From an uncultured Gammaproteobacteria bacterium (GTDB lineage Bacteria > Patescibacteriota > Microgenomatia > Levybacterales > UBA12049), in the NCBI GenBank assembly GCA_964507055.1, contig CAZDOJ010000002.1, forward strand, positions 687-64,686: a stretch of 64,000 bases of DNA. Direction: 5' to 3'. Positions 11,319 to 46,009 of this stretch are shown here, one piece after another. A program made the translations under genes and the position numbers. The notes under the pieces are model-generated. The model searched no databases, was not told where the DNA came from, and saw only the letters and a program-made list of their open reading frames with translations. Numbering within the stretch: position 1 is the stretch's first letter; every line of letters begins with the position of its first letter.

Positions 11319-11486
11319 TTTATTCAGTTTTTATTATTTGGAATGCTTCACAGTATACTTTCTAAGCCCCTGAAATCTGTTCTAATAGCTCTATACCCTC
11401 TGAAACGGACATTTAGCTAACTCATCCATTTGTCAGGATTGTCATCAAACTCAGCGGCTTATATTGTATAGTGCTATTGGGAGGAG

Positions 11487-11756: not shown

Positions 11757-11773
11757 TACTGTATAATCCACCC

Positions 11774-15268: not shown

Positions 15269-15991
15269 GTGAAAATGCTTAAAAAACAATTAATATTAGG
15301 AGTAGGTATCACTGTCGCTCCGACTGCCGCTATCCTAGAGAATATTCTCATGCTTTTGTCTGAAGGGCAAAAAAAGTTTTTTATTGTTACTCCAAACCCT
15401 GAAATCCTTGTTTATGCACAATCACATTTAGACTACAAAGATAGGCTAAACAGTGCTGAGGTGTCTTTGGCTGATGGAGTGGGTGTGCTTATCGCAAGTA
15501 AGATTCTGGGGTTAGGGATAACAGAAAGGACTACAGGCGTGGATTTCATTGAAGAGCTGTGTAAAGCGTCTCGTGAAAAGCCTTTATCCATAGGATTTCT
15601 GGGTGGTAGAGGTGGCGTAGCAGAGAAGACTGCTGAGTGCTTGAAGCAGAAGTACCCCTGGATTAATGTAGTTTTCACAGGAGAGACATGGCTAGATCAA
15701 GGCGTGAAAAGTAAAAAGAAGATGGATATGCTTTTTGTTGCTTATGGTTTTCCTAAGCAAGAAAACTGGATTGTTGAAAATTTAGATAGACTTCCTGTGA
15801 CAGCAGCTATGGGAGTGGGAGGAGCATTCGATTATATAAGTGGTTCTGTCCCACGTGCACCTAAGATCATGAGAGTGGTTGGACTTGAATGGTTTTTTCG
15901 TCTTATCGTCCAACCTTGGCGACTCCGACGTCAATTAGCACTAGTGACATTTTTACAACTTACTCTAAAAGAAAAATTCTCTAGCCGTTAA
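15269..15991 (+). CDS. WecB/TagA/CpsF-family glycosyltransferase.
   Basis: FIVTPNPEILVYA, FVAYGFPKQENWI, AAMGVGGAFDYISG. Family-typical motifs and size (~240 aa). Confidence 0.7.
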   Translation: MKMLKKQLILGVGITVAPTAAILENILMLLSEGQKKFFIVTPNPEILVYAQSHLDYKDRLNSAEVSLADGVGVLIASKILGLGITERTTGVDFIEELCKASREKPLSIGFLGGRGGVAEKTAECLKQKYPWINVVFTGETWLDQGVKSKKKMDMLFVAYGFPKQENWIVENLDRLPVTAAMGVGGAFDYISGSVPRAPKIMRVVGLEWFFRLIVQPWRLRRQLALVTFLQLTLKEKFSSR

Positions 15992-16087: not shown

Positions 16088-17632
16088 TTGGTAACAAGTC
16101 AAAATGGCGAGTTGTACTTTGTGGTGGGAGTAGATGATTGGGGCAATGATGCAAATGCAACAGCAGGGAGTGGTTATATGATTCAAGATCAGCAAGCAGA
16201 TGTTGATACACATGAACGATTCTATACAGAAGCAAAAGTCGCAAATTCAGGAACACACGCAACCAATTTCACCATAGGGTCTGCTTCTAAGTGGGCTGTG
16301 ATCGGAGCATCATTCAAGCCAGCAGTGATAGCAAGTGGTTCAGGAACAGCTTCAGGATCTGCAACATTTACTTATGATTTAAATGGAAATATGGCGAGTG
16401 ATGGTGCGAAGTTGTATCAGTATAACGAAGCAAATCAGCTAAAGACAGTGAAGCTCGCAAGTAACAGTGCGACTATTGCAGAATATGTCTATGATTACAA
16501 AGGTCAAAGAATGGTTAAGAAAAATTACAACAATGGCACGCTTGCAAATACAGTCATCTCATGGAGTGATAGTTTTGAAACAAAAGCGATTGTAGGTGGG
16601 GGAACTGAAACGACAAACTACTATTTTGCAAATAATGAGTTGGTAGCGAAGAAAGATAACAGTGGCAATAAAGTCTACTTCCACAATGATCATCTGGGAT
16701 CGAATTCCATAACGACCAATCAAGCTGGATCACAGGTAGAAAATGTGACATATGACCCATGGGGTAAGGTCCTGGGAGCTGCGACACAGAGTAAGTATCT
16801 GTACACAGGACAAGAATACGACGGAGAGACAGGACTCAATTATTACGATGCTCGATACTACAATGCAGACATTAGAAGGTTTACCCAGCCAGATCCTATT
16901 GTTCAAGATGTCTATGATCCACAATCGCTTAATAGATATTCTTATGCCAGAAATAATCCACTAAGATATACTGATCCGACAGGTCATGCAATCTGGGATA
17001 CAATTGTAAATTCTGTTAAGCAAGCAGTAAGTGCTGTTCAATCGTTCTTCTCACCACCAAAGGCTCCTCCTGTTTATTCATCTTTGCCAGCATCGTCAAT
17101 TCCTTATCGAGGACCAATTAATACTCCTTCAGCCGGAAGGTCAAGTGGAAGTAGTAGCTCAAGTAGTAGTAATGGTGGCGGAAGTGGCGGAAATGGTAAT
17201 TTAGGAGGAGGCTCAGGTGGCAATTCAGGGCAAGGGAGCAATTATAATGGCTCTTCTCCAGTGGTTAAGAAAATAGTAGATAAAACTTCTTTTCCTTTGA
17301 ACTTAGCAGTTTCCGCATACTATGCTTATAGCATTCGTAACGATGTGCGAAAGGAGGCTCAAAATAGACCTGGTGGAGCAGACGATGGCACAGAGGGAGA
17401 TGCTTGGCGACATGCGCGTATTATGGAAATCTTGGTTAAAGATACTGGACCTGAGAATGCATTAATGATAGGTGTAGCACATGAAGTCCAAGGATTAACT
17501 AGCAAGAATTGGACCGCACAGGATAGCTTTATGGATATGCATAACAATGTTGTGTCTGTTTATGGAGTAAGTAATGGCTTAACACCAAATCAGTTGGTCG
17601 AAAAAAATATGCTATATTACTACAAGAAATGA
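16088..17632 (+). CDS. Short RHS/YD-repeat protein: a few YD repeats, the RHS repeat-associated core, then a ~230-aa C-terminal polymorphic-toxin-like domain. It starts at TTG and looks N-terminally truncated (orphan CT cassette).
   Basis: YD repeats (FTYDLNGNM, YVYDYKGQRM, YYFANNELVAKKD). Core motif YTGQEYDGETGLNYYDARYYNADIRRFTQPDPI ... NPLRYTDPTGH. A G/S-rich linker precedes a unique C-terminal domain. A stop lies immediately upstream in frame, and no ATG start is present. Confidence 0.7.
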   Translation: MVTSQNGELYFVVGVDDWGNDANATAGSGYMIQDQQADVDTHERFYTEAKVANSGTHATNFTIGSASKWAVIGASFKPAVIASGSGTASGSATFTYDLNGNMASDGAKLYQYNEANQLKTVKLASNSATIAEYVYDYKGQRMVKKNYNNGTLANTVISWSDSFETKAIVGGGTETTNYYFANNELVAKKDNSGNKVYFHNDHLGSNSITTNQAGSQVENVTYDPWGKVLGAATQSKYLYTGQEYDGETGLNYYDARYYNADIRRFTQPDPIVQDVYDPQSLNRYSYARNNPLRYTDPTGHAIWDTIVNSVKQAVSAVQSFFSPPKAPPVYSSLPASSIPYRGPINTPSAGRSSGSSSSSSSNGGGSGGNGNLGGGSGGNSGQGSNYNGSSPVVKKIVDKTSFPLNLAVSAYYAYSIRNDVRKEAQNRPGGADDGTEGDAWRHARIMEILVKDTGPENALMIGVAHEVQGLTSKNWTAQDSFMDMHNNVVSVYGVSNGLTPNQLVEKNMLYYYKK

Positions 17633-29076: not shown

Positions 29077-30492
29077 TTGACTCCGCACCATCGCTTCATT
29101 ACGATTAGGTTAATGGTAAATTCACACCGCTTTTTATTTTTGATTTCATTTATAGTGTTTTCTATTGTTTTTGCTTCTATAATCCCCAAAACTTATGCAG
29201 CAAATACACAATTGTCTGTTACTGTTTTTCTTCATGGGATAGGCAAAGGAGGAGATAGTGCCAATGCAAATAGTGGTGGGAATACTTCTCCCAAGAGTCA
29301 GCAAAAAGATGTATCAATTGGAGTATTTAATGCTCAGAATGTTTTAGTTTCAAGCAGCCGAGTTACAGCGACGTACTCTGCAACAGATGGTAATTATAAA
29401 GCCACGGTAGATTTAGGATCACTTGCATCAGGTTCGTACAATGTAGCAATACGCAGTGATAAGTATTTACAAAAGACTGCTGCTGGTATTCAGAACATTA
29501 CGTCAGGTAAGTCCAACACAATTGCTCCAGTTCGTTTAATAGCTGGAGATATCCTCATCGACAATATGATCAATATTCAGGATTTTAATATGCTGATGAA
29601 CTGTTATGCAGATTTAACTCCAGCAAAGGCTTGTACAACTGCCCAAAGCTCTCTGGCGGATTTAACTGATGATGGAAATGTAAATCAGTTAGATTACAAT
29701 TTATTCATTCGGGAGATAGGTAATAGAAGTGGTGAAGCAAATCCTACCAGCACTATTACATCTGCTCCAACAGTTAATCCTACAACGACAAAGTCTCCAA
29801 CTCCAAATCCATCTGGAAGTAATGCTTCTCTCCCTGCTCAAATACTAAATTTGACTAATTGGAAACTTCAGCTTCCGTCAGGTCAAGCAGAAAGTCCGAC
29901 GGAGATCAAACAGCCCGCACTTGCTACATATAAAAATGATCCATATTTTGTAACGTCAAATGGAGGTGTTCGATTTCGTGCTCCTGTTAATGGGGTAACG
30001 ACAAGTGGTTCTGATTATCCTCGTTCTGAACTCCGTGAGATGACCAGTAACGGTACAGCTCAAGCGAGTTGGTCTACTTCTTCAGGAACGCATACAATGC
30101 TTCTCGATGAGGCAATCACAGCGGTTCCTGTAACAAAGAAACATGTAGTCGCGGGGCAAATACATGATGGTGAGAATGATGTCATTGTTATTCGTTTGGA
30201 AATGCCAAAGTTGTTTATCGATATTGGGGGAACTGCTGGCCCGACACTTGATACAAATTATACTTTGGGTAAGCGATTTACAGTTAAGTTTGAGGTTACA
30301 GGTGGCAAAACAAATATTTATTACAATGGCAGTACAACTCCTACTTATACGATGGCAAATAATTATGCAAATGCATATTTTAAGGCTGGTGCATATACGC
30401 AATCTAATTGTACGAAGGAACCTTCAAATTTATGTAATGCGAATAACTTTGGTGAAGTAATTATTTACAAGACTGAAGTGGTACACAAATAG
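29077..30492 (+). CDS. Secreted polysaccharide lyase family 7 (alginate-lyase-2 fold) protein with a dockerin-like Ca-binding repeat and a Thr/Pro linker.
   Basis: PL7 blocks: NWKLQLPSG, YPRSELREM, GQIHDGEND, YFKAGAYTQSN. Dockerin-like segment DLTDDGNVNQLDYNLFI. Confidence 0.65.
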   Translation: MTPHHRFITIRLMVNSHRFLFLISFIVFSIVFASIIPKTYAANTQLSVTVFLHGIGKGGDSANANSGGNTSPKSQQKDVSIGVFNAQNVLVSSSRVTATYSATDGNYKATVDLGSLASGSYNVAIRSDKYLQKTAAGIQNITSGKSNTIAPVRLIAGDILIDNMINIQDFNMLMNCYADLTPAKACTTAQSSLADLTDDGNVNQLDYNLFIREIGNRSGEANPTSTITSAPTVNPTTTKSPTPNPSGSNASLPAQILNLTNWKLQLPSGQAESPTEIKQPALATYKNDPYFVTSNGGVRFRAPVNGVTTSGSDYPRSELREMTSNGTAQASWSTSSGTHTMLLDEAITAVPVTKKHVVAGQIHDGENDVIVIRLEMPKLFIDIGGTAGPTLDTNYTLGKRFTVKFEVTGGKTNIYYNGSTTPTYTMANNYANAYFKAGAYTQSNCTKEPSNLCNANNFGEVIIYKTEVVHK

Positions 30493-32693: not shown

Positions 32694-33254
32694 CTACTGC
32701 AACATAGATGTTGGTATTAATGCATTGGTCATAATATGGATTACTCCGTTTTTGGTGTCTATATCATAAGTCTCAAAGTACGAATATCCATTGATGTTCC
32801 AATAGCCATTTGTTTTATTAAAGACTAATTTATCGCCTTGTATTGTTGTAAGTTCTAAGCCTTCTTTCAGGTCAGAAAAGTGATATTCGCCTTTAACAAT
32901 ATGAAACAAAAGGAACTCGCGTAATAAACCCTCTTGGTTTGGGTCACGAAGTCTTCCTGTTAAATCAGTAGAAAGCTTTCCAAAAGCCTGATCAGATGGA
33001 ACAAATACTGTATATGGTCCATTCTGATGAAGGAACGTATCAAAACCAGCAAGTCGTATAAGTGTATTAAATTGACGGGTTTTTTCGGAATAGGTTAAGT
33101 TGTCAGCGATATCGGATGAAGGACGCATTTGAATGCCATCGTATTCAATGATTGAGGTATTATGGTAAATCCAAATAAGTGCAGCAGGGATGAGTATCGC
33201 TAAAAGAATAACGATTATATAGACTGGTTTCTTTTTTACCTTTACTGTCATCAC
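32694..33254 (-). CDS. Fasciclin (FAS1) domain protein, membrane-anchored.
   Basis: GPYTVFVPSDQAFGKL and NGVIHIMTNALIP FAS1 motifs. Confidence 0.7.
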   Translation of the reverse strand: MMTVKVKKKPVYIIVILLAILIPAALIWIYHNTSIIEYDGIQMRPSSDIADNLTYSEKTRQFNTLIRLAGFDTFLHQNGPYTVFVPSDQAFGKLSTDLTGRLRDPNQEGLLREFLLFHIVKGEYHFSDLKEGLELTTIQGDKLVFNKTNGYWNINGYSYFETYDIDTKNGVIHIMTNALIPTSMLQ

Positions 33255-33315
33255 TTTATCTTATCTTAAGAAAAATAGAGAGTCAACGAGCTTCACCATA
33301 GTTGTGACCAATCCA

Positions 33316-33948
33316 TTATGGAGTTGGTTGGGCTGATGTTACTGCTGCCGTTGGGAAAGTCGTTGGAATACTGGTCGGAGATTTGTAGTTCGGTGGCATG
33401 ATCCCTGCTGTAGGTGCAGCTGTTGGAGCACCTGTCGGTACACCTGTAGGCGTACAAAATCCACCAATGACGAGCATTATATCCTTTGCACAACTGACCT
33501 TAAAGGCGTTCTTAAAGGGGGAGTTCTCACGAGTGAGGGGAGTTTGAATATATTTCGGTGTAGGTGTAGGCATATTAACTGGTCCTGAAGTGATTTTTCG
33601 GGCAGGAGCTTTTGTTGGAACTGGTGCTTTTGCAGCAGGGGCAAGATTAATAACGGGATTTGCTGGGGCCGCCGGTCCGGGTGCTCCTCCAGCACAATAA
33701 CCAGCACGGCCCGCTCCGTATGGAACACATGGTCCTGTCCCAACACATTGGTTATTTCCAGCCATATCACATCCTTGAGCCACGACTCTATTTACCTCTA
33801 GAGCATCTTTCTCTGCAGCAAACTGTCGTAGTATTTGTGATTGACTCAATGTAAATATAGTCAAGGCCAGAATAGGCAACATAATAAAAAAGAAAAGTAT
33901 ATTTTCTTTTTGTCTTTTAATAGTCTTTTTCTTTTTTATTTTGGCCAT
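33316..33948 (-). CDS. Secreted Pro/Ala/Thr-rich protein. Its N-terminal ~50 aa are paralogous to 30841-32691.
   Basis: The leader MAKIKKKKTIKRQKENILFFFIMLPILALTIFTL aligns with MAKLRKKNTRQVKNKKRNLLFFFVMLPILALTVFTL. Confidence 0.4.
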   Translation of the reverse strand: MAKIKKKKTIKRQKENILFFFIMLPILALTIFTLSQSQILRQFAAEKDALEVNRVVAQGCDMAGNNQCVGTGPCVPYGAGRAGYCAGGAPGPAAPANPVINLAPAAKAPVPTKAPARKITSGPVNMPTPTPKYIQTPLTRENSPFKNAFKVSCAKDIMLVIGGFCTPTGVPTGAPTAAPTAGIMPPNYKSPTSIPTTFPTAAVTSAQPTP

Positions 33949-33949
33949 A

Positions 33950-34501
33950 TTATTTAAGTTGACTTGGAGGTTTCATGAAGCTGGTAACTGTATGAATTAC
34001 ACCATTTTTACTTTCGACATTGTAAGTTTCAATGTATGAATAGCCGTTAATTATCCAATAATCTTTTGCTTTATTAAATTTGAGTTTCTCACCTTGGATA
34101 GTGGTTAATTCCATTCCATTTGTAATATCTTCAGCAAGATATCGTCCTCGAACTATATGATAGAGAAGCATTTGTCTGAGTGTTCCTTCTTGATCTGGAA
34201 GTTTCAAAGACTCGGTAAATTCATCAGAAAGGTTATTATACGCAGTATTTGTTGGTGCAAAGACTGTAAACGGACCAGGTTCATGAAGAATATCATCATA
34301 GCCAACTGATTCTAAAAGCGAGCCAAAACGATTTGTTTCTGGAGAATAGGAGAGGTTATCTGCAATATCCATAGAGGGACGCATATGCAGACCTTCATAT
34401 TCAATGGTCGATGGATTTGCATAAATAGTATATGCACCTACAGGAATAAAAATGAGAGGTAAAAGAATGATGATAATGAGTATTTTTGTTCGTAATTTCA
34501 T
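33950..34501 (-). CDS. Fasciclin (FAS1) domain protein, membrane-anchored. Paralog of 32694-33254.
   Basis: GPFTVFAPTNTAYNNL and NGVIHTVTSFMKPP. Confidence 0.7.
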   Translation of the reverse strand: MKLRTKILIIIILLPLIFIPVGAYTIYANPSTIEYEGLHMRPSMDIADNLSYSPETNRFGSLLESVGYDDILHEPGPFTVFAPTNTAYNNLSDEFTESLKLPDQEGTLRQMLLYHIVRGRYLAEDITNGMELTTIQGEKLKFNKAKDYWIINGYSYIETYNVESKNGVIHTVTSFMKPPSQLK

Positions 34502-34630: not shown

Positions 34631-35020
34631 TTATTTCAACTCGACAGTAGCTCCTGCTGCTGTAAGTTTTTCTTTTGCTTCGTCAGCTGTTTTTTTGTTA
34701 ACTTGGTTCAAAACTTCTTTTGGTGCCGCATCAACTAAGTCTTTCGCTTCTTTAAGACCCAATGCTGGGTTTAATTCACGAAGTGCTTTAATAACAGCGA
34801 TCTTTTGAGCTCCTGAGCTCGCAATGATAACGTCGAATGAAGTCTTTTCTTCTGCAGGTTCTGCATCAGCTGAGGCTCCAGCTGCAGGTGCAGCGGCGAC
34901 CATAGTAGCGGCAGCAGAAACTCCGAACTTCTCTTCAAGAGCTTTTACTAAATCTGAAAGCTCGAGAACTGACATCTCTTCAATTGCTTGCATTAATTCG
35001 TCTTTACTTAATTTTGCCAT
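34631..35020 (-). CDS. rplL: 50S ribosomal protein L7/L12.
   Basis: [34 protein letters not shown] ... [24 protein letters not shown]. Confidence 0.9.
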
Positions 35021-35618: not shown

Positions 35619-35775
35619 ATTGATAAAAAAAAGACACTCTCGAGGAGTGCCGTGAAGTTCAAATAAACTAATGTGGCTCCTCGGTTGGGCTTACTTTTAC
35701 GCCAACTGTCTTTGGAATAATTAGTATTATAGCAGGGAAGGGGAAAAGTGTAAAGGGTAGTAAGGTTTTAAATTC

Positions 35776-38148
35776 TTACTGGGATCCAAGTGCTTGTTGG
35801 ATTGCACTTTTATATGCATCAGATCTAGCTTGATTCACAGTGCCACTTTCAGTAATAAAGCCTAAGTAATCACGTCCAGAATAGCCGTTCATAGTAAACA
35901 TATGTATCTCTTTAACCCATGGTCTATCCTTTGCAATTTTAACAAACTCTGGCATTGCACTGATATATTCTTGTTCAGAAGATGCTCGTTGATCTGTTAA
36001 ATTCATTTCAGTAATAATGAATGGTTTGCCATTTCCTCCCGGTTTGGACCACGCCCAAGCCTTTTTTTCATCAAGAACACTTGCCATTTCACTTGGTGTA
36101 AAGTAGAGATGGATTTCAAATCCATCAGCTAATTCGTATAGGTCAGGTACAGCGGCAAGGACTTGTTCTTGCCAGGTATTACTATCTGGATCAAGTGCTA
36201 CATATATTTTTGCATTTGGATTTGCAGCATGCCCGGCGATAATTGCATCCTTCATAATTCGTCCATAGGAAGCAGGGTCAATATCTCCTCCACGGAACCA
36301 ATTTCCATATGGTTCATTCATCCCTGAAAATGATTCGACTGCATATTGTGCTTGGTCTGGCTTGTTAGCAAAGTATGTTCCTCCTGGTCCATATTTTTTC
36401 ACTGCTTCTGCCATCTTGTTGGCATAATCTTGTCGATGTTTATCGAGGGAGGATAATCCTTCACCATCATTGACACAAAGCGATAAGTGCATTCCTTGAG
36501 CAGCTAGGGCCGGCAAGCCACCATTTGCGTCTTCAATGTTCACTTCACCCAGACAATCACGTGTTCCATTAACACCAAGAAGTGATTTAGCTCTTGCAGC
36601 AGCTCCATATCCGACTACTCCTGTTGCTCCATAAATCTTTTGCCCTGCTGTAGGAGCTGTCGATGGATTTGTACTTGGAGTTGGGGAAGTCCCAAAGAGC
36701 GTAGGAGTTGGATCCTGTGTAGGTTGTGCTCCAGTTGTAGGCACAGTTGTTGGCTCCACAGCATTGGTTGGTTCAGGGCATGGTGAAGGATTGCCCGGAT
36801 CTGTTGGGAGTGGGACATTGCCCCCACGAAGGATGTATTCGATAAGCCAGATCAGGAACTTCATAAACCGTTCGATGAAACCACCACCACGACCATGCTT
36901 GTGTTTTTTATGTTTTTTCTTGTTATGCATGACACTGCTTGTGCTTTCTTGACACGGGTTTATTGAAGGATACGGTGTACTTGCTCCACCTGAGGGATTA
37001 ACACCACCGCTAGGGACTGTTGATGGGTTTGTAGCACCACCACTCGGTGCGGCAGAGGTCGAAGGATTAATTGGTGCACAAGGAGGTTCTCCCACGCCAC
37101 CGACACAATAAATGGTTGGCGTAATAAGTGAAGGAGCTGTAGTAATCTGCGTTCCTGTCGAAGGTTGAACTCCTCCTGCAACTGGTGTGTAGCTGTTCCA
37201 CTCTTTTAACACTCGAAGTTTCTCCCACGGAATACCATTCATTTGATAGTAATCGCTGGTAAATCCTACGCTTGGATAAGGATCAGGTTTATCCATTGGA
37301 TGTTCAAATTGGAATGCCATACCTGCACCGCCACAGTCGATAACATATGCACCGTATTTTTGTAGTGCTTTTGCTACTGTTTTTTCACCTGCCGACATAG
37401 AGAGAGAATCAACATTTACAGATGGATCAAGCTGAATACGTGCACCTTCGGGGATTGCTCCAGCTCCACTATACTTTCCATCAGTTTTAACTGCAGGGAA
37501 GCGAATTTCATCAACGGCACAATAACTAGACGAGAATACTAAAGCATGCTCAATATTTCCTTGTTGCATTTCGTATGTTCTGACAATTCCAGCCAAACGT
37601 GAAGTTCCAGCTCCAATTGCTGAATTTTCAGGGGACCCTCGTCCGTCACCATCAAGGGGCAGAATTCCTCCCCAATTAGTCGTGGCTTTATCGTTTTTAT
37701 AAACCCAGAATTCATAACTTTTTCTTGAAGATAAATCAACAATCACCATTTGTCCGTCTGAGCCGGGAGCTTGCTTCGCATCGTCTGGGATTGGGACTTG
37801 TTCTGTCGAAATACCACAAGTACCCCAACTCTCAGTACAATTTATGTTATATTTGGGTGTATTTGCATCAGCGAAATATATAGGAGTACCGAACTCATAC
37901 AGGTCCGCAACCTTATCTCCACCGGCTAATGTTTGAACCATCTCAGCACTTTTCGGATCCAGTTGTACATTTGTGCCAATAGGCTGGTTCCATGCACTAT
38001 CATCTGCAAAAGGTCTTCCAGCATTTGGAGTCATATTTGTCGAAGCTTTACTGCGGTTATCTTGTTGTTGAAATACTGAGAAAATAGTGAGAGGAATTGC
38101 TAATGCAATTAATAGAGTAGGTATCAGGATATTAGGTTTTCTTCCCAT
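35776..38148 (-). CDS. Secreted modular protein: QQQDNRSKA leader, unknown N-terminal domain, shared cassette, and a C-terminal clan GH-A (GH5-like) TIM-barrel glycoside hydrolase.
   Basis: Leader FSVFQQQDNRSKAS. Putative acid/base GMNEPYG and nucleophile FIITEMN motifs, with FEIHLYF between them. Confidence 0.55.
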   Translation of the reverse strand: MGRKPNILIPTLLIALAIPLTIFSVFQQQDNRSKASTNMTPNAGRPFADDSAWNQPIGTNVQLDPKSAEMVQTLAGGDKVADLYEFGTPIYFADANTPKYNINCTESWGTCGISTEQVPIPDDAKQAPGSDGQMVIVDLSSRKSYEFWVYKNDKATTNWGGILPLDGDGRGSPENSAIGAGTSRLAGIVRTYEMQQGNIEHALVFSSSYCAVDEIRFPAVKTDGKYSGAGAIPEGARIQLDPSVNVDSLSMSAGEKTVAKALQKYGAYVIDCGGAGMAFQFEHPMDKPDPYPSVGFTSDYYQMNGIPWEKLRVLKEWNSYTPVAGGVQPSTGTQITTAPSLITPTIYCVGGVGEPPCAPINPSTSAAPSGGATNPSTVPSGGVNPSGGASTPYPSINPCQESTSSVMHNKKKHKKHKHGRGGGFIERFMKFLIWLIEYILRGGNVPLPTDPGNPSPCPEPTNAVEPTTVPTTGAQPTQDPTPTLFGTSPTPSTNPSTAPTAGQKIYGATGVVGYGAAARAKSLLGVNGTRDCLGEVNIEDANGGLPALAAQGMHLSLCVNDGEGLSSLDKHRQDYANKMAEAVKKYGPGGTYFANKPDQAQYAVESFSGMNEPYGNWFRGGDIDPASYGRIMKDAIIAGHAANPNAKIYVALDPDSNTWQEQVLAAVPDLYELADGFEIHLYFTPSEMASVLDEKKAWAWSKPGGNGKPFIITEMNLTDQRASSEQEYISAMPEFVKIAKDRPWVKEIHMFTMNGYSGRDYLGFITESGTVNQARSDAYKSAIQQALGSQ
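36690..37130 (-). repeat. Copy 1 of the shared ~140-aa Cys/polybasic/hydrophobic cassette (conserved at nucleotide level).
   Basis: LITPTIYCVGGVGEPPCAPI ... PYPSINPCQESTSSVMHNKKKHKKHKHGRGGGFIERFMKFLIWLIEYILRGGNVPLPTDPGNPSPCPEPT. Confidence 0.8.
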
Positions 38149-38201
38149 AGATAATAAGTAGTTCTAGTTTATATAAAAAATGGGGGTAAATACAAGTGTA
38201 A

Positions 38202-40205
38202 CTAGCGGCCAAGTGTGTTTATGAGAGAAGTATAAGCAGGTTTGGGTTGGAAATTAGAATCAAACATCAACGGATTTTGTCCCGAAAGCCATGTGTGTCC
38301 ATCGTAAAGTCCCCACGTTGTTATACCTGTGCATCCATTCTGTTTGCAAGCTGTCCCAAGTTCTGCATATCTACCGGCTTGATCGTCAATATTGATAACA
38401 TCAAGTTCAGTGATTTCAGCTTTTACTCCAGCTTCAGTAAGTCGTTTGATATTTGCACCGATTTCTGTACCAGTTCCTGGATAATCTCCCGCTGAATGCG
38501 TTTGGAGGCCGACTCCATTAATTGGGATCCCACGTGCCTTAAAGTCTTTTACCATATTGTAGACTGCATCAGATTTTGCTTTTTTATTCCCACCGCGATC
38601 GGCGATTCCTTCAGTCCCATAATCGTTATAGAATAACTCTGCATTTGGATCTGCTTCATGTGCCCATTGGAACGCTTTTGCAATGTAATCATCTCCAAGT
38701 TTTTGTTTCCAGACAGTATCTCTTAATGAACCATCATCATTAAATGCTTCGTTCACCACATCCCATTGTGCAACTTTTCCTTTATATCTTGTGACGACAG
38801 TTTGTATATGGTTTTTTAGTGCTGTTTCAGCTTCCGCATTACTTAATCCATCAACCCAGCCTGGTACTTCAATATGCCAAACGAGTGTATGGCCCCGAAC
38901 TCGCATATTATTTGCTTGTGCATAGTTCACTATTTTATCTGCACCGTCCCAATTAAACTGCCCTTGAGTTGGTTCAAGGGGACCAAACTTCATTGCATTT
39001 TCAGGGGTGAGGGAATCGAATTTATAGGTTTTTAATGTGTTAGTAAATGTTGCATTGTCGAGTTGGTCTGGTTCTATGGCTGCTCCCAAACGTACAGTCC
39101 CTGTTGAGGGGGCTGTTGTTGGGATTGTTCCAAAGAGCGTAGGGGTCGGATCCTGTGTAGGCTGTGCTCCCGTTGTCGGAACAATTGTTGGCTCCACGGC
39201 ATTGGTTGGTTCAGGACAAGGTGAAGGATTTCCTGGATCTGTTGGGAGTGGAACATTGCCACCACGAAGGATGTATTCGATTAACCAAATGAGGAATTTC
39301 ATAAACCTTTCGATGAAACCACCGCCACGACCGTGCTTATGTTTTTTATGTTTTTTCTTGTTATGCATGACACTACTTGTACTTTCTTGGCATGGGTCGA
39401 TTGAAGGATACGGCGTACTTGCTCCACCTGAAGGTGTAACACCACCAGTGACACCTGGCGTTCCATTGCCAGGAGTACCTCCACCAGTACTCGGAGTTGT
39501 TGTTCCAATCGGAGCACAAGGAGGTTCGCCAACACCACCGACACAATAGATTGTTGGTGTGATGAGTGTGGGAACAGGCTGTGTGGGTTGCACTGTTGTA
39601 GTTGTTGCAGGAATTGATTGCAAACAAGTCTTGGATTGGGGATCAAATACATTACCAGAAAACACTTCACGTCCTGCAGGAGGATTTACTTCAACTGCTG
39701 TTGTTTCTTTCGTCCACTGATTCTCACACTGAATGACACTATCTCCGGAATTGGTATCGCTGGTCATCCATATATCGATATGATATTTCTGACCGCTAGA
39801 CCAATCTGATATACATTGGGCACAGGTATCTTCCATGACGCCGTATTTTTTGAGAAAAGGAATATATACTTTTGTGCCAGCAGGAAATTCATTTGGATCG
39901 GTCGCAAATGTGACAGGATCTTCAAATGTTCCTACACCTCCTGCGGATTGATGAATTCCGGGAAGGGCAATATTTGCACTTGGAGGATCATTGTCTGGCC
40001 AGCCATAGAATGTTACCTGCATGTCTATTGTTTCAGTGGCTACTGTCTTTGCTGCCAGTGTTGATTCTTTTGGATTATCTTGTTGGCTATTTCGTTGCTG
40101 TAAATCTGCGTTATACTGTTGCGTTAGAGAATGAAGTGTAATGACTGGAACTATGACAATAGTGGCGAAAAGTATAAGTAATAAATGAGTCTTTTTCATA
40201 GTCAA
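38202..40205 (-). CDS. Secreted modular protein: N-terminal DPBB-fold (RlpA/3D/expansin-like) domain, shared cassette, and a C-terminal GH10 endo-1,4-beta-xylanase domain.
   Basis: GH10 blocks GHTLVWH, WDVVNEAFNDDGSLR, ITELDV, ITTWGLYDGHTW. N-terminal VTFYGWPDNDPP ... TKVYIPF. Confidence 0.75.
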   Translation of the reverse strand: MTMKKTHLLLILFATIVIVPVITLHSLTQQYNADLQQRNSQQDNPKESTLAAKTVATETIDMQVTFYGWPDNDPPSANIALPGIHQSAGGVGTFEDPVTFATDPNEFPAGTKVYIPFLKKYGVMEDTCAQCISDWSSGQKYHIDIWMTSDTNSGDSVIQCENQWTKETTAVEVNPPAGREVFSGNVFDPQSKTCLQSIPATTTTVQPTQPVPTLITPTIYCVGGVGEPPCAPIGTTTPSTGGGTPGNGTPGVTGGVTPSGGASTPYPSIDPCQESTSSVMHNKKKHKKHKHGRGGGFIERFMKFLIWLIEYILRGGNVPLPTDPGNPSPCPEPTNAVEPTIVPTTGAQPTQDPTPTLFGTIPTTAPSTGTVRLGAAIEPDQLDNATFTNTLKTYKFDSLTPENAMKFGPLEPTQGQFNWDGADKIVNYAQANNMRVRGHTLVWHIEVPGWVDGLSNAEAETALKNHIQTVVTRYKGKVAQWDVVNEAFNDDGSLRDTVWKQKLGDDYIAKAFQWAHEADPNAELFYNDYGTEGIADRGGNKKAKSDAVYNMVKDFKARGIPINGVGLQTHSAGDYPGTGTEIGANIKRLTEAGVKAEITELDVINIDDQAGRYAELGTACKQNGCTGITTWGLYDGHTWLSGQNPLMFDSNFQPKPAYTSLINTLGR
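39140..39570 (-). repeat. Copy 2 of the shared cassette.
   Basis: Identical polybasic-hydrophobic core to copy 1. Confidence 0.8.
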
Positions 40206-40237
40206 TTTGAAAATAATGTATCTACAAAGAAATTAAA

Positions 40238-41329
40238 CTAATTCTTTGGAGACATGCATGTTCCCGTAGCTTGATTCCAAATAGGATTTGGATCTACTGC
40301 AAGGTTTGCTGGAGGGTCGATAATAATTTGTTCATTACCAGATGGGGTGAGTGATTCTTCACATTGTATAACTGATTCACTATCTGAAGGATTTCCTACG
40401 TAGAGATCAACCATAGTTACTGCACCACATCCATCAGGAGCTGTCCATGAAACAGCACATTCGTCTTCACGAATAAAGTATTTTTGGACACGAGGGACAT
40501 AGATTTTCTGTCCAAATGCATATTCACCAGGACCAGCAGGGGAGGCAAATGTAAGTGGGTCTTCATATGATCCTGTCCCTCCAGCCTCTTGATGGATAAC
40601 TGGATTTGCAATTGCCTTTGAACCCTTTGGATCATTATCATATGAACCATAAAATGTAATCTTTACAGTTGCCTGAGTTCCACTACCTGTAGAAGGGGAC
40701 ACAGATGGAGAAACTGTTGGAGCCGTAGTTGTCCCAAATGTAGTTGGTGTTGGATCTTGTGTCGGTTGAGCTCCACCTGTTGGTTGGGTTGTAGGTTGTG
40801 GTTCTGTTGTTGGCTCAGGGCAAGGATTTGGAGTTCCTGGATCTGTTGGTGCAGGTACGCTACCGCCTCGAAGAATATATTGAATGAACCAAAATATAAA
40901 TTTAAAGAATCGTTCGAAGAATCCACCACCTCGACCTTGCTTGAACTTCTTTTTCTTTTTGTTATGCATGACACTGTTTGAACTGTCAGTATTACATGGA
41001 TCGACTGAAGGATATGGAGTACTTGCTCCACCTGTTGGATTTGTTACACCGGTAGGAGGAGCTGTAGAAGGTGAAGTACTTGCTCCGTTTGTCGGTGCTG
41101 TCGTTGAGGTTGGTGCCATGGTCGCACATGGAGCGGATCCTACGCCTCCAACACAATAAATTGTTGGTGTGATAAGGGTAGGAGCCATTGCTTGCAAAAC
41201 TGCTGTTTGTTGATTCTCACTAGCAGCTGCTTTACTGCGGTTGTCTTGGTTTTGCGATACAGAAAAAATAGTGAAAGGGAGGGCGAATAATAAAAAGAGG
41301 GTAGAAAGTAATAAGAATTTTTTCTGCAT
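40238..41329 (-). CDS. Secreted protein: QNQDNRSKA leader, a diverged copy of the shared cassette, and a C-terminal DPBB-fold domain.
   Basis: Leader FSVSQNQDNRSKAAA. Cassette SVMHNKKKKKFKQGRGGGFFERFFKFIFWFIQYILRGGSVPAPTDPG. C-terminal VKITFYGSYDNDPKG ... QKIYVPRVQKY. Confidence 0.6.
   Translation of the reverse strand: MQKKFLLLSTLFLLFALPFTIFSVSQNQDNRSKAAASENQQTAVLQAMAPTLITPTIYCVGGVGSAPCATMAPTSTTAPTNGASTSPSTAPPTGVTNPTGGASTPYPSVDPCNTDSSNSVMHNKKKKKFKQGRGGGFFERFFKFIFWFIQYILRGGSVPAPTDPGTPNPCPEPTTEPQPTTQPTGGAQPTQDPTPTTFGTTTAPTVSPSVSPSTGSGTQATVKITFYGSYDNDPKGSKAIANPVIHQEAGGTGSYEDPLTFASPAGPGEYAFGQKIYVPRVQKYFIREDECAVSWTAPDGCGAVTMVDLYVGNPSDSESVIQCEESLTPSGNEQIIIDPPANLAVDPNPIWNQATGTCMSPKN
40759..41185 (-). 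repeat. Copy 3 of the shared cassette (most diverged).
   Basis: See the parent CDS. Confidence 0.7.
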
Positions 41330-41401
41330 CTTACTTATATCGTATCCAAATTAAGGCGGCGTTACAATAGTTGCTTACAAAATAAATTGTACTTGTGAAA
41401 T

Positions 41402-43846
41402 TTATTTCTTGTACATGTGGACCCAATCTACTTCCATCTTACCTTCTTTAACTGGAGTTTGACCGGTGAGATTATCAAGTTGAATTGTTTGGTGCATTGA
41501 AACATTTGGATTTGATCCTTGGCCATCGGTTGAATAGATTTCTTGGCCATCAACATATCCTTTGAACCCAGCAGCTGTCCATTCAAAACCATAGACATGC
41601 CATTGAGAAATATCTACATCTTCTTCATGACTGAAACAATTTTGTGAAGCATTGCCAACACAATGGAGGAATACACCCATACCACTTCCAATATTTGACT
41701 CAAAGTAATCTAATTCACCGTCATTCCAAACATCAGTGTCTGGCCAAAGAATTAATACAGGGTGAGGTGCTGATCCACTCGTTCCTGTAGAATATGCTCG
41801 CATTCTGACTTCCCAGTATCCATATTTTTGTGCAAAGTCAGAAGACATACCACATGTTGATCCATCCGCGAGTTGTGTTTGCGTCAACATACCGTTACCA
41901 AATGTACATTGTGAAGATTTACGTCCACCGCCAACTACGGTATCACCACCGCCGCCGTCATACGCTGTCCATCCTGAAGGCATACTTGTACCATTAAAAT
42001 CTTCGCATTTACTTATCGTATATCCGGTGACTGGGGCATTTGGTGTAGCAGCTGATCCGCCACATGTTGTTGCCGTTGGATCTCCAGTTCCGCCTCCGGT
42101 TGAAGGAACAGGGGAAGCAGCTGTAGAAATAGTTGGAACCGCTGTTGTTCCGAATGTTGTAGGCGTTGGATCTTGTGTTGGCTCAGCTCCTCCTGTTGGT
42201 TCAGTTGTAGGCTGTGGCTCTGTTGTTGGTTCAGGACAAGGGTTATTCGGATCAGTTGGAAGTGGGACATTCCCGCCACGAAGGATATATTCAATTAACC
42301 AGATCAGGAACTTGATGAATCGTTCGATAAAGCCACCACCACGACCATGTTTGTGCTTTTTATGCTTTTTCTTATTATGCATGACACTATTTGTACTTTC
42401 TTGGCATGGTTCAACAGTGGAAGGGTATGGTGTGCTTGCACCACCAGAGGGGTTTACTCCACCAGTAACACCAGGAGTTCCTGAACCTGGAGATCCACCA
42501 CCTGCACCTGGAGTAGTTGTTCCATTAATCGGAGCACAAGGAGGTTCACCAACGCCACCGACACAATAAATTGTTGGTGTAATTAGGGATGGGGATGCAC
42601 TGATTGATGGATTTGCTCCACCGGTTGCACCAAATTCATATGCACCCATATCAATGCCACTGCCAGCAGGTCGAGCTTTATTCTCTTTATCAAATGTTGG
42701 AGCACCGTTAGCATCACCTTTATCAATAGCAGGGGAGCCTGCTGCAAGATGGTAGTCGCCATTACCTACGAAACCTGTCGTCGTAACAAGATTATTACCC
42801 ATTTGCAGGCCATTACCACTTGGATTACTCGTAAAGATGTTATTAAAGACAGGATTCGATCCACTTGGAGCTTCGACTACATTAATTGGCTTATCCTCAT
42901 CAATAGTATTGTTATAAACGCGGATATCTGACAATGTTCCTCCAGATTCTACCCAGAATGTTATACCGCCTCCAGCATTACCGTAGATAACATTATTAAA
43001 GATATCAATATTTCCAGCTTTTTTTGGATTCTCACTTCCTCCATAGGATGTTTCAGCAGCAATCATGATGCCGGCTTTACTTCCTTCGGTTGTGCCATAG
43101 GAAGTATTATTGTAGATTTTAATGCCACTTGAGCCATCGACATAAATGTTTGGACCGCGATTACCAAAGACTACATTGTCGTGAATAGTTCCGTTAACTT
43201 CACCTGCACCATTGTATTTAGCATCAATTCCTTCTTCGCCATTGTCATGAACTTGGCAATTCTTGATCTCAAAGCCTGTTGAGCCGCCAGTAATACTCAA
43301 AGCTTCGCCGTCAGCACCTGTACCTTCAGCATTTGTTCCGTGGATATTACAACCATCAACAACGACGTTTTTACTGCCAGATATTATCAATCCACCATCT
43401 TGTGAGCCATCAATCTCAAAGTCTTTTAGTACTAAACCATCTGCACCGTTGACTTGTGCACCAAAGCTGCTTGAGCCTTTTACTGTAATCCCGATGAGCG
43501 TAACACTCTGACCAGAGATTTTCATTGTGCCATTGGTTATTACGCGTCCTCCAGTTGCTTGAACTGTGACATTGCTTGCAGATATATCAAGTGTTTCATT
43601 ATATGTGCCTGCTGCGACATTGACAGTACCTCCTGATCCTGCTGATTGGATTGCAGAATTGATTGAGCCTCCGGGTTGAACGTCAACTGTTACTCTTGCG
43701 GATGCAGCTTTACTACGATTATCCTGTTGTTGGAGTGCTGCAATGACCGTAATAGGTAGAACGAACATTGTAACGAGAATAGCAAAAAGAACTTTACGAT
43801 TTTTCATCCGTATCTTTATGTTATATACAAAACTCGTGTAATACAA
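41402..43846 (-). CDS. Secreted modular protein: QQQDNRSKA leader, right-handed parallel beta-helix (pectate-lyase-like) domain, shared cassette, and a C-terminal GH16 beta-glucanase domain.
   Basis: Leader IAALQQQDNRSKAAS. PbH1-like repeats (NCQVHDNGEEGID, IHDNVVFGN, IFNNVIYGNAGGG). GH16 catalytic motif WNDGELDYFESN (ExDxxE). Confidence 0.7.
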   Translation of the reverse strand: MYYTSFVYNIKIRMKNRKVLFAILVTMFVLPITVIAALQQQDNRSKAASARVTVDVQPGGSINSAIQSAGSGGTVNVAAGTYNETLDISASNVTVQATGGRVITNGTMKISGQSVTLIGITVKGSSSFGAQVNGADGLVLKDFEIDGSQDGGLIISGSKNVVVDGCNIHGTNAEGTGADGEALSITGGSTGFEIKNCQVHDNGEEGIDAKYNGAGEVNGTIHDNVVFGNRGPNIYVDGSSGIKIYNNTSYGTTEGSKAGIMIAAETSYGGSENPKKAGNIDIFNNVIYGNAGGGITFWVESGGTLSDIRVYNNTIDEDKPINVVEAPSGSNPVFNNIFTSNPSGNGLQMGNNLVTTTGFVGNGDYHLAAGSPAIDKGDANGAPTFDKENKARPAGSGIDMGAYEFGATGGANPSISASPSLITPTIYCVGGVGEPPCAPINGTTTPGAGGGSPGSGTPGVTGGVNPSGGASTPYPSTVEPCQESTNSVMHNKKKHKKHKHGRGGGFIERFIKFLIWLIEYILRGGNVPLPTDPNNPCPEPTTEPQPTTEPTGGAEPTQDPTPTTFGTTAVPTISTAASPVPSTGGGTGDPTATTCGGSAATPNAPVTGYTISKCEDFNGTSMPSGWTAYDGGGGDTVVGGGRKSSQCTFGNGMLTQTQLADGSTCGMSSDFAQKYGYWEVRMRAYSTGTSGSAPHPVLILWPDTDVWNDGELDYFESNIGSGMGVFLHCVGNASQNCFSHEEDVDISQWHVYGFEWTAAGFKGYVDGQEIYSTDGQGSNPNVSMHQTIQLDNLTGQTPVKEGKMEVDWVHMYKK
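42166..42586 (-). repeat. Copy 4 of the shared cassette.
   Basis: SVMHNKKKHKKHKHGRGGGFIERFIKFLIWLIEYILRGGNVPLPTDPNNPCPEPT. Confidence 0.8.
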
Positions 43847-43877
43847 GTATTATTTTAGACTTTCTTTATCTTTAAGA

Positions 43878-44015
43878 TCATCTCGGTTCAATAAGAAATG
43901 GCTCCACGGTTTGTGCCTTGGTTCTATTATCTTGTCCTTGAAGTGCCATAAATACGGCGAATGGAATGACCAGAAGAGAAAGTAAAAGAAGAATAAGAAT
44001 TTCTTTGCGTTTCAT
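43878..44015 (-). CDS. Leader-only mini-ORF (45 aa): signal-anchor helix plus QGQDNRTKA motif, then stop.
   Basis: Manual translation of the minus strand: MKRKEILILLLLSLLVIPFAVFMALQGQDNRTKAQTVEPFLIEPR*. It is below the 60-aa cut-off of the ORF track. Confidence 0.4.
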   Translation of the reverse strand: MKRKEILILLLLSLLVIPFAVFMALQGQDNRTKAQTVEPFLIEPR

Positions 44016-44068
44016 GAACTATAACTATCGTAGCTGAAGAAATCTAGTCTTTCAAGAGAAGGGGAGTA

Positions 44069-44910: not shown

Positions 44911-45333
44911 TTATTCTACTGCGATACCCATTGATCGTGCAGTTCCTGCTACGATTCGAGCACCCATTTCGACATCATCTGTATTCAAATCTTCAAGTTT
45001 TGTCTCAGCAATTTCTTTTGCTTGAGCCATTGTTAATGTTGCATGCTTTTCTCGTCCTGGTTTTTGGCCACCTTTATCTTTACCGATTGCCTTTTTGATC
45101 ATTTCAGCAACTGGTGGTTTTTTCGTAATGAAATCAAATGTACGATCTTCGTATACTGTGATAACAACAGGGATAACATTTCCCTTAAGTTCAGCTGTCT
45201 TATCGTTATACGCTTTAACGAACTCCATGATATTCAAACCATGAGGTCCAAGTGCTGTACCAACAGGTGGTGCTGGTGTTGCTGCTCCTGCTGGAAGAGC
45301 AATTTTAATTAATGTTTTAATTTTCTTTGCCAT
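44911..45333 (-). CDS. rplK: 50S ribosomal protein L11.
   Basis: [32 protein letters not shown]. Confidence 0.9.
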
Positions 45334-45340: not shown

Positions 45341-46009
45341 TTAGATCTTCTTAACTTGTAAGAAGTCGAGTTCTACTGGAGTTTCACGTCCAAAGATACT
45401 TACGAGAACTTTAACTTTACCTCGAGCGTCATCAATGGATTCGATTGTACCTAAGAATTCACTGAAAGGACCGTCTGTAATCTTCACAGCTTCACCAACA
45501 ACAAATTGTACTTTGTACATTGGTTCCTCGAGTTGCATAAACTTCTGGATTGCTTCAACTTCTTTTTCAGAGATTGGAGTTGGTTTGTTACCAGCACCAA
45601 TGAATGAAGTAACACCTTGTGTACTTCTGACCATGAACCAAGTTTCATCGTCAAGCTTCATCTTTACCAAAACATATCCTGGAAAGATCTTTTCTTTAAC
45701 GGTTTCTTTTTTGCCTTGTGAAACTTTAATTGTATTTCGTGTAGGAACGATGATATCAAAAACTCGATCTGTGAACTTCATCGCTTCAACACGCTGTTTA
45801 AGTGATCGCTCTACTTTGTTTTCGTGTCCAGCGTAGGTATGAATGATGTACCATCGTGCACCTTCTGAAGCTTTTGCTCGTGCATCAGCATCTTCTTGTG
45901 CTTTCTTTGCAGCATCATCTGCGATTACATCTTCGACAGGAGTTTCTTCCTGTACTTCAGTAGCCTCTACTTCTTGTTCGTCTTTAACTGTTTGTTTTGT
46001 GTGATCCAT
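45341..46009 (-). CDS. nusG: Transcription termination/antitermination factor NusG with an acidic N-terminal extension.
   Basis: [25 protein letters not shown] (NGN domain). C-terminal KOW ([25 protein letters not shown]). Confidence 0.85.

Follow-up and report, generated by a model that had tools for sequence, protein, structure and literature searches.

Four adjacent genes for secreted proteins share a cassette

This analysis concerns a 64,000-nucleotide window of contig CAZDOJ010000002.1, in which four consecutive minus-strand open reading frames (ORFs), at 35776-43846 and transcribed in the order P4, P3, P2, P1, each carry one copy of a cassette of about 148 amino acids (aa). P1 (35776-38148, minus strand, 790 aa) consists of a signal peptide with the motif QQQDNRSKAS, a secreted domain of about 290 aa (domain A; aa ~37-325, equivalent to 37174-38040 on the minus strand), the cassette, and a C-terminal domain resembling glycoside hydrolase (GH) clan GH-A. 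The whole protein had no Pfam match, with a sub-threshold GH5/Glyco_hydro_cc match (E 0.01) at aa ~500-790, and domain A had no match in Pfam or among PDB sequences. Domain A recurs in cassette-family members P0004, P0020 (Levybacteria), and P0034, with the cassette downstream every time, and P1 as a whole is identical to family member P0001. P2 (38202-40199, minus strand, 665 aa) is read here from an ATG; the listed TTG start at 40205 (ORF 38202-40205) adds 2 aa. It comprises a signal peptide, a DPBB-like domain, the cassette (aa 212-358), and a GH10 xylanase domain (Pfam E 9.9e-100), and it matches the 665-aa family member P0002. Its N-terminal domain is homologous to the C-terminal domain of P3, with a weak 3D-domain match.

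In P3 (40238-41329, minus strand, 363 aa), a signal peptide with the motif QNQDNRSKAA directly precedes the cassette (aa 52-200), which is followed by a DPBB-fold domain. P4 (41402-43807, minus strand, 801 aa) carries a signal peptide with the motif QQQDNRSKAA, a right-handed β-helix, the cassette (aa 408-554), and a GH16 domain, with Pfam and NCBIfam matches to Beta_helix (1.8e-15), GH16 (1e-7), and a choice-of-anchor Q domain. The listed ORF of P4 starts at a TTG at 43846; the ATG start at MKNRK used here (801 aa) is also the gene call on identical public Logan contigs. A preliminary description of the window had called all four proteins carbohydrate-active enzymes and had placed the cassette between unrelated catalytic domains. 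The enzymatic assignment is verified for two genes and plausible for a third, the remaining one being supported only by its fold, and the interdomain position holds for P1, P2, and P4 but not for P3.

All four N termini are signal-peptide-like, with additive insertion energies between +0.2 and -2.1 kcal/mol for the best 19-residue segment of each. A motif QQQDNRSKA(A/S) follows the hydrophobic core of the signal peptide at aa 26-36 of P1 (about 38041-38073) and aa 26-36 of P4, and the P3 variant QNQDNRSKAA lies at aa 25-35; within the window, motifs of this type are restricted to cassette proteins P1, P3, and P4. Relatives occur in other members of the cassette family (QQPQEIRQRAQ, QQQDPRSRAS, and KEQDVRSRAQ), and the motif may be a lineage-specific signal-peptidase or sorting motif.

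A tblastn search over the 64 kb found exactly four cassette copies, all on the minus strand. Copy 1 (36688-37128; P1 aa 341-487) comprises a Cys loop (37075-37128), a motif containing the third Cys (C3; 36952-36975), a polybasic tract (36880-36924), an amphipathic helix (36826-36879), a GG/Pro-rich stretch with the fourth Cys (C4; 36766-36825), and a Pro/Thr (PT) linker down to 36688. The same parts lie at 39513-39566 (Cys loop), 39390-39413 (C3 motif), 39318-39362 (polybasic tract), 39264-39317 (helix), and 39204-39263 (Pro-rich stretch with C4) in copy 2 (39126-39566; P2 aa 212-358). Copy 3 (40730-41176; P3 aa 52-200), the most divergent of the four, has its Cys loop at 41123-41176, C3 motif at 40994-41017, polybasic tract at 40922-40963, helix FFERFFKFIFWFIQYILR at 40868-40921, and Pro-rich stretch with C4 at 40808-40867. 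In copy 4 (42146-42586; P4 aa 408-554), the corresponding coordinates are 42533-42586, 42404-42430, 42332-42376, 42278-42331 (helix FIERFIKFLIWLIEYILR), and 42224-42277. Read from the N terminus, the motifs of the local copies are LITPTIYCVGGVG(E/S)(P/A)PCA, PYPSxxPC, SVMHNKKK..GRGGG, F(I/F)ERFxKFxxWxIxYILR, and GG(N/S)VP(L/A)PTDP..PCPEPT, followed by the PT linker. Every sequence feature quoted for the shared block in the preliminary description was found in P1-P4, and the alignment of the four copies confirmed its four invariant Cys.

The cassette family in CPR genomes

A profile built from the four window copies was searched against 1.84 billion cluster representatives and returned 78 proteins at the cutoff of E<=1e-3, of which 20 reached E<=1e-10 and 4 reached E<=1e-30, a signal far stronger than chance would give. 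Seven of the 78 carry two cassettes, giving 85 copies in total, and the order of elements is common to all of them. The first element, xTPTxYC[VL]G, has its second Cys 3 to 9 residues further on and leads into a spacer rich in Pro, Thr, Ser, and Gly. The third element, P-x-x-P-C, stands with its Cys 20 to 33 residues ahead of the helix and is followed by about 5 to 8 residues, often S[VI]xH. Next come a Lys/His/Arg-rich tract with Gly at its end and a helix of ~18 to 20 residues of the type F[ILF]ExF[FMI][KRQ]F[LI]xxL[IL]ExLL. The remaining elements are a Gly and a Pro-rich stretch, a fourth Cys, often within PCPEPT or DPC, and a PT linker. The Met of SVMHN and the motif P(L/A)PTDPG are features of the local subfamily only; family-wide, only PxPxxP is retained.

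Three further interpretations of these motifs were rejected. An internal translation start at the Met of SVMHN is contradicted by its loss elsewhere in the family, where SIQH, SVQH, or NVFH stands instead. By inspection, an intein-like reading (Cys ... HN) fails on the Lys after HN, the intervening low-complexity sequence, and the lack of conservation of HN, and a lipobox at the first Cys fails on Tyr or Phe at the -1 residue and on internal copies that have no preceding signal peptide.

The cassette most commonly lies right after a signal peptide with an enzyme behind it (41 of the 78 proteins), so the earlier picture of a helix in the middle of enzymes does not describe the basic layout. Sixteen proteins carry it between two domains, as in P1, P2, and P4. 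Another 14 have an upstream domain and <100 residues downstream, and some of these end mid-cassette and look truncated. The other seven, mostly short fragments, have neither an upstream domain nor >100 residues downstream. Partner domains include GH16 (in 11 proteins), S8 subtilases (7), and ricin lectins (6), together with GH114, polysaccharide and alginate lyases, GH10, GH5, GH26, phosphoesterases, phytase, an M28 peptidase, and β-lactamase-fold proteins. Wherever source organisms of family members are named, they belong to lineages of the Candidate Phyla Radiation (CPR): MBA3724687.1 and MBA3724688.1 are cassette proteins of "Candidatus Levybacteria", and HSX09082.1, from "Candidatus Saccharimonadales", represents a subfamily with Gln-rich helices. 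The cassette is best explained as a lineage-specific accessory module that exported enzymes carry in CPR/Patescibacteria, namely in Levybacteria-type Microgenomates and in Saccharimonadales.

The cassette belongs to no family catalogued in Pfam, NCBIfam, or PDB sequences. No Pfam family covers it in P1-P4 or in a scan of the 78 members, NCBIfam gave no match to it at E<=1, and the best hit of a PDB profile search, the Ig domain of sodium channel Nav β-2 (E 0.038), was judged spurious. A literature search combining CPR with amphipathic and polybasic terms and with the literal motifs returned nothing relevant, and we found no published description. No catalogued linker or anchor matched the block, in line with the initial impression. 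A word-based homologue search with the P1 cassette yielded 49 candidates, none at E<=0.01, which probably reflects an index limit on low-complexity sequence, since the exhaustive profile search found 78 proteins. A search for related loci with a narrow alignment yielded just 1 locus from a genome and 7 from metagenomes. In L001-L004, public assemblies built from short reads of the same organism, the contigs end 855 nucleotides (nt) into P2, inside the cassette (window about 39350). Cassette repeats break assemblies, and family members are therefore probably under-represented or truncated in databases.

In six gene neighborhoods, no recurrent partner gene (protease, oxidoreductase, or scaffold) was found. 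What does recur is the position between rplA and rplJ and a ClpB-like gene upstream of two S8-cassette genes. On two unrelated contigs (L016, 5832-12679, and L019, 6431-12265), a very long ClpB-like AAA+ gene is followed immediately downstream by a gene for an S8 subtilase, cassette, and DPBB domain; the two S8 proteins are P0014, with two cassettes, and P0026, with one. Both contigs also have a 109-aa ORF within about 650 nt downstream of the S8-cassette gene.

A disordered stalk bearing a charged tract and an amphipathic helix

AlphaFold2, run on a 20-sequence alignment, predicted a single helix at cassette residues 85-102 with a block-mean pLDDT of 76-87; everything outside it was coil, and the pTM was 0.20. 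Pro, Thr, Ser, Gly, and Ala make up 65% of the residues outside the basic tract and helix. The cassette is thus an intrinsically disordered Pro/Thr/Ser/Gly stalk with four conserved elements. Pro/Thr-rich interdomain linkers known as PT boxes occur in cellulases and xylanases of actinobacteria. Like the cassette, they are disordered, P/T/S-rich, and extracellular, join catalytic to accessory domains, and are sites of domain shuffling. Ordinary PT linkers, however, have no conserved Cys, polybasic tract, or amphipathic helix and are not recognizable by profile across lineages, whereas the 85 cassette copies have the Cys loop, C3, helix, and C4 in common; a plain PT linker was rejected on these grounds.

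Properties of the helix were derived from 76 family helices aligned at their start, and from 83 for Cys and charge counts and the Eisenberg hydrophobic moment. Polar residues occupy positions 3, 7, 11, 14, and 18, typically as E, K/R/Q, Q/E/K, E/N/Q, and K/Q/R, respectively, while the remaining positions are 67-99% hydrophobic except for position 4 (47%). The periodicity of hydrophobicity is strongest at 100 degrees per residue, and the median hydrophobic moment is 0.60 on the Eisenberg scale and 0.64 on that of Fauchere-Pliska. The helix thus combines a very broad apolar face with a narrow polar stripe; at about 2.5 to 3 heptads in length, its stripe is compatible with both 3.6 and 3.5 periodicity. 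In an additive, position-independent approximation of the Hessa scale, the apparent free energy of insertion (ΔGapp) of the helix 19-mer has a median of +9.4 kcal/mol and a range of +2.5 to +21, with 0 of 76 below 0. The helix is not transmembrane competent, and because ΔGapp never falls below 0, it should be exported by Sec rather than integrated.

The helix itself contains a median of four K/R/D/E residues, and the 22 residues upstream of it a median of seven K/R/H and one D/E. On average, the basic residues among these 22 are four K/R and two H, with up to seven H. Helix and 15 upstream residues together have a median net charge of +4, and adding these residues raises a HeliQuest-type discriminant from 0.62 for the helix alone to 1.85. 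Gly bounds the helix on both sides. A class III type IV prepilin signal was rejected. The G|F junction is common, with Phe at helix position 1 in 43 of 76, but Glu stands at +3 rather than +5, the hydrophobic residues form an amphipathic helix, and the cassette is either internal or placed behind a Sec signal peptide.

Most copies have three Cys ahead of the helix and one behind it. In proteins with tandem cassettes, the second copies lack C1-C2 and keep C3 and C4, and since these tandem copies retain only the latter pair, the pattern suggests two independent disulfides, C1-C2 and C3-C4. A C3-C4 disulfide would close a loop of ~55 to 75 residues around the basic tract and helix.

Selection on the cassette

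Among the four window copies, pairwise identity is 69-88% at the amino acid level and 67-82% at the nucleotide level (codon aligned), with synonymous differences of pS 0.47-0.71 and dS 0.7-2.1. Between these paralogues dN/dS is 0.07-0.15. The helices of P1 and P2 agree at 20/20 residues and differ by six synonymous codon differences, and those of P1 and P4 agree at 19/20 with eight. Low dN/dS at this dS, together with identical helices despite synonymous differences, means that the similarity of the cassettes is due to purifying selection on the protein and not only to recent duplication or conversion. The block had been described as a conserved unit, and a dN/dS of about 0.1 agrees with one under selection; the added statement that conservation extends, nearly identical, to the nucleotide level was exaggerated, given nucleotide identities of 67-82% and many synonymous differences.

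The antisense frames had also been reported as open and nearly identical in all copies. Long antisense ORFs lie at 39037-39549, 42027-42569, and 40884-41159, but the open lengths in the four copies are unequal (87, 140, 91, and 140 codons). Resampling of synonymous codons, drawn according to codon usage in these genes, gave frames as open as the observed ones or more so in 6-66% of cases. The frames are open because the Pro/Thr/Gly-rich amino acid composition predicts it, and synonymous changes in the sense strand are frequent; antisense coding was rejected and the reported openness is a composition artifact. A conserved RNA structure was likewise rejected, the segment 36800-36960 folding no better than shuffles (z = +1.09), and an Rfam scan of the window found tRNA only.

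Between species, window genes were compared with their orthologues in L006 (OZ246394.1), where dS is about 1.8 or not computable (saturated). At this divergence, P1 domain A is 95% identical, the P4 β-helix 84%, and the Cys loop and helix block each 90-95%, while the spacer rich in Pro, Thr, and Gly is 44% identical in the P1 pair and 90% in the P4 pair, and the basic tract 64%. The helix changes from FIERFMKFLIWLIEYILR in the window to FIERFMRFLIWLIEYILR in L006. Helix and Cys loop are therefore about as constrained as the flanking domains. The basic tract is constrained in composition while its sequence drifts, and the spacer is free to vary.

Domain exchange in the rplA-rplJ island

The four genes occupy the gap between rplA (L1; 44069-44899, minus strand), the upstream edge, and rplJ (L10; 35070-35618, minus strand), the downstream edge; rplK (44911-45333) and nusG (45341-46009) lie further upstream, and rplL is at 34631-35020. 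This gap is a variable island of secreted hydrolases in four related genomes (window 35619-44068; L006 4187-9183; L015 3666-7602; L018 5188-12080), inside an otherwise conserved (secE-)nusG-rplK-rplA-rplJ-rplL cluster. In L006, it holds a gene for β-helix, cassette, and DPBB and one for domain A, cassette, and an unrelated C-terminal domain. L015 (Levybacteria JACDET010000050.1) has signal peptide, cassette, and GH16 in one gene and domain A, cassette, and BSP plus ricin domains in the other, while L018 has a GH5-cassette protein, a β-helix-cassette protein, a CBM96 protein, and a Pel9A-like protein. A near-consensus promoter-like site lies at 35754-35726, between P1 and rplJ and just upstream of rplJ.

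In the window, L006, and L015, domain A and the cassette are retained in the final gene ahead of rplJ, but its C-terminal domain differs; those of P1 and its L006 orthologue are 18% identical. The β-helix gene of L006 combines a P4-type N terminus and cassette with a P3-type DPBB C terminus. Similarity within the window is mosaic as well: P2 and P4 have the most similar spacers (22/27), the closest pairs for the C-terminal PT linker are P1 with P2 (25/26) and P3 with P4 (24/26), and P1 and P2 share a 300-nt stretch of 89% identity. These patterns, read from sequence comparison, indicate recombination within and beside the cassette that reshuffles catalytic domains. Conserved among paralogues, the cassette thus acts as a homologous junction for the exchange of catalytic domains.

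In L006/L017 (OZ246394.1, 1.61 Mb, labeled uncultured Gammaproteobacteria bacterium), the rplKAJL region, cassette genes, and flanks are collinear with the window. The Gammaproteobacteria label of OZ246394.1 is probably wrong, given the rplKAJL island and an arrangement of the domain A cassette gene as in the Levybacteria contig.

Possible function of the cassette

We tentatively favor, at somewhat less than an even chance, the view that the cassette is a peripheral anchor, a loop stapled by a disulfide that retains exoenzymes at the envelope. The protein would be exported by Sec via its N-terminal signal peptide, and disulfides C1-C2 and C3-C4 would then form, the latter stapling the flanking stalks at the base of the loop. 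The stapled loop would display the cationic tract and the amphipathic helix and bind the anionic envelope peripherally, with the helix lying flat in the outer leaflet of the cytoplasmic membrane and the basic tract touching anionic wall polymers or the head groups of lipids. In this way, one or two catalytic domains could be held on long flexible PT tethers at the surface of a very small cell instead of diffusing off.

Such an anchor is favored because the helix is strongly amphipathic yet unable to insert, next to positive charge and bounded by Gly, and because the preferred position behind a signal peptide and the diversity of exoenzyme partners fit a tether. The cassette has two features expected of a peripheral anchor, an adjacent net-positive segment and a high moment at 100 degrees. 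It is further favored because P1-P4 have no other recognizable retention signal; Pfam and NCBIfam gave no anchor family in these proteins, and their C termini are catalytic domains. Envelope genes in the window encode MreB, a TagA/WecG-type transferase, and a sortase, which fits a monoderm envelope with anionic glycopolymers.

In Escherichia coli, PBP5 and PBP6 are held by C-terminal amphipathic-helix anchors. These and the septin anchors resemble the cassette in having one amphipathic helix of ~18 to 20 residues that is not transmembrane competent and lies beside a cationic cluster; as in the cassette, the helix of PBP5 belongs to an enzyme that acts outside the cytoplasm. The cassette differs from both in being internal or N-terminal, set in a long disordered Pro/Thr stalk, and bracketed by conserved Cys, with a much broader hydrophobic face and no sequence relation. 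Combined electrostatic and hydrophobic contacts would be the expected mode of binding for all of them. For septins, two reports describe the polybasic tract plus amphipathic helix as a membrane-binding unit (PMC6403118; bioRxiv 10.1101/379982).

Several points weigh against a peripheral anchor. All steps past export, namely disulfide pairing, binding to membrane or envelope, and retention, are ones that we infer, and the formation of disulfides is assumed. The discriminant of the lone helix (0.62) is borderline. Helical bundles that self-associate just as typically contain helices of this kind, ~70% hydrophobic and with a narrow polar stripe, and the evidence fits oligomerization as well as it does membrane binding. 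The polybasic tract must pass the Sec channel against the positive-inside bias, and the wall could limit the reach of tethered domains. Finally, some exoenzymes of this genome have no cassette, such as the alginate lyase at 29077-30492 with a dockerin-like domain, so retention is not the sole possible rationale.

Docking or oligomerization, in which the helices would bundle or bind a scaffold and create a multienzyme complex as a minimal helix-based analogue of a cellulosome, is possible but unlikely. With about five of seven positions hydrophobic around the polar stripe, such a helix cannot stay monomeric in water, and Q-rich variants such as LLQQLLQLILQLLQLLLQQI resemble Leu/Gln zippers. Neighboring paralogues carry identical or nearly identical helices under purifying selection (P1 = P2, with one change in P4), both L006 genes have the same helix, and seven proteins have two cassettes. 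Adjacent cassette genes of L018, however, encode clearly different helices, LIDVFMRFIIEFLRFLLEML and IIERFLQFLFKLLEMFFKFL, and those of L015 match at 15/20. A parallel bundle would cluster tracts of about +4 to +11 charge, the helix, flanked by Gly at either end, spans only ~18 to 20 residues, most often just one enzyme follows the cassette, and no partner or scaffold gene recurs in six contexts.

Like a dockerin, the cassette is a small noncatalytic module on many different exoenzymes of one organism that could organize enzymes at the cell surface. Unlike a dockerin, it lacks the duplicated, EF-hand-like Ca-binding fold, and no candidate resembling cohesin was identified as its partner; Dockerin_1 had no match in the cassettes of P1-P4, and no dockerin is among the families listed for the 78 members. 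The sole Dockerin_1 match belongs to the alginate lyase at 29077-30492 (PL7-type Alginate_lyase2), which has a short PT linker and no cassette (compare L017, 10519-11611); the Alginate_lyase2 family is common to this enzyme and the cassette-bearing P0012 and P0037. OZ246394.1 gave weak cohesin and dockerin matches, and the lineage may also have a cohesin-dockerin system.

Anchoring and docking could also be combined. A loop that both fixes exoenzymes to the envelope and zips them together via helix contacts would make a minimal helix-based cellulosome and at the same time a recombination junction, allowing ultra-small cells combinatorial reassortment of domains in the rplKA-rplJL hotspot. It would represent a new route to surface enzyme systems, specific to CPR; we regard this composite as rather improbable.

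A processing site appears quite improbable. A subtilisin- or kexin-like cut in the basic tract would split a polyprotein or remove an N-terminal pro-segment, and by extension it might free a cationic amphipathic membrane-active peptide. The tract does lie within disordered sequence and would be an accessible protease target, and seven family members are themselves S8 subtilases. In 41 of the 78 proteins, however, only a disordered segment of ~60 aa precedes the tract, so that a cut there would not part one domain from another; many tracts are rich in His (up to seven) rather than dibasic, and the strict helix length, polar stripe, flanking Gly, and conserved C3/C4 would be superfluous for a cleavage site. 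The basic tract with its narrow-polar-face helix resembles lytic cationic peptides; those of class L likewise join a basic segment to a helix that has bulky hydrophobic residues and a narrow face of polar ones. The cassette differs from class L in its E/K/Q-mixed polar stripe with net charge of about 0 and in being part of large enzymes, and its partners are saprotrophic polymer hydrolases rather than cell-killing effectors.

Targeting to substrate or matrix seems similarly improbable. The basic tract would bind pectin, alginate, glucuronoxylan, extracellular DNA, or biofilm matrix as an electrostatic substitute for a carbohydrate-binding module, an idea consistent with partners acting on anionic polymers (alginate lyases, pectate-lyase-like β-helices, polysaccharide lyases, and GH114) and with a tract whose composition is kept while its sequence drifts. 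It leaves the most conserved elements, the amphipathic helix and the Cys pattern, unexplained, and many partners act on neutral polymers, proteins, or phosphoesters (GH16, GH10, GH5, S8, and phytase).

Membrane tethering, a processing site, and a docking module had all been proposed at the outset, and these candidates are still in play, but a re-entrant or transmembrane topology is now disfavored. We consider it very unlikely that the helix crosses or re-enters the membrane, or that the unit is a sorting signal, reversed or internal, for a sortase-like enzyme. A helix of ~20 residues does match the thickness of a bilayer and has a basic cluster at one end, and the window encodes a sortase (11774-12517). 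The insertion energies of the family helices nevertheless lie entirely above 0, compared with +0.2 to -2.1 for the hydrophobic regions of the P1-P4 signal peptides, and a spanning helix would put GH10, GH16, or S8 in the cytoplasm or the basic tract outside, against the positive-inside rule. The cassette had been likened to a mirror image of a sortase signal, and like the LPXTG sorting signal of monoderm surface proteins it combines a Pro/Thr/Gly motif, a hydrophobic stretch, and a basic cluster. The likeness is superficial: LPXTG is absent (PLPTDPG or PAPTDPG stands instead), the order is reversed to basic tract, helix, and Pro motif, the position is internal or N-terminal rather than C-terminal, the helix does not span the membrane, and P(L/A)PTDPG is weakly conserved family-wide.

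That the cassette is a passive spacer whose similarity is kept by recent duplication or gene conversion among neighbors is hardly credible: the mosaic similarity and the 89%-identical stretch of P1 and P2 do show recombination among copies, but dN/dS is about 0.1 at dS 0.7-2.1, helix and Cys loop are far better kept across species at saturated dS than the true spacer of the P1 pair (90-95% against 44%), and 78 divergent representatives, with two CPR lineages among them, show the same architecture.

Relevance to CPR secretomes

CPR/Patescibacteria are ultra-small, mostly uncultured bacteria with reduced genomes, and the cassette bears on how such cells keep costly exoenzymes and their products close. 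Its likely mode of action, as a peripheral cationic amphipathic anchor on a PT tether, is a known type of solution, while the cassette itself is uncatalogued. Carried by dozens of distinct hydrolases from two or more CPR lineages, the module is a testable candidate for retention or assembly without lipidation, sortase, or S-layer-homology machinery. Because it is invisible to Pfam and NCBIfam, it merits a family definition, which would improve the annotation of CPR secretomes. The C3-C4 stretch of ~60 residues is a short portable tag that might serve surface display. An exoenzyme island between rplA and rplJ with swapping at the cassette in four genomes is also an unusual genome organization.

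Other features of the window

The sortase gene (11774-12517) lies in a region (2437-12517) that also encodes a 2,708-aa protein with an M23 peptidase domain, four LamG-like domains, and four DUF2341 domains, a 187-aa ORF, and a tRNA (11179-11251). By a simple pattern, no LPXTG-type C-terminal tail was found on the proteins beside the sortase. The TagA/WecG-family glycosyltransferase gene at 15269-15991 hints at a wall glycopolymer, and the gene after it (16088-17632), for a protein with an RHS repeat and DUF6973, hints at a polymorphic-toxin-like protein. The region 32694-34501 encodes a secreted protein of 210 aa (33316-33948) that is Pro-rich and contains Cys, with a fasciclin-domain paralogue on either side. 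Its similarity to the cassette is compositional only, and the trio is syntenic in L006 (10390-12182).

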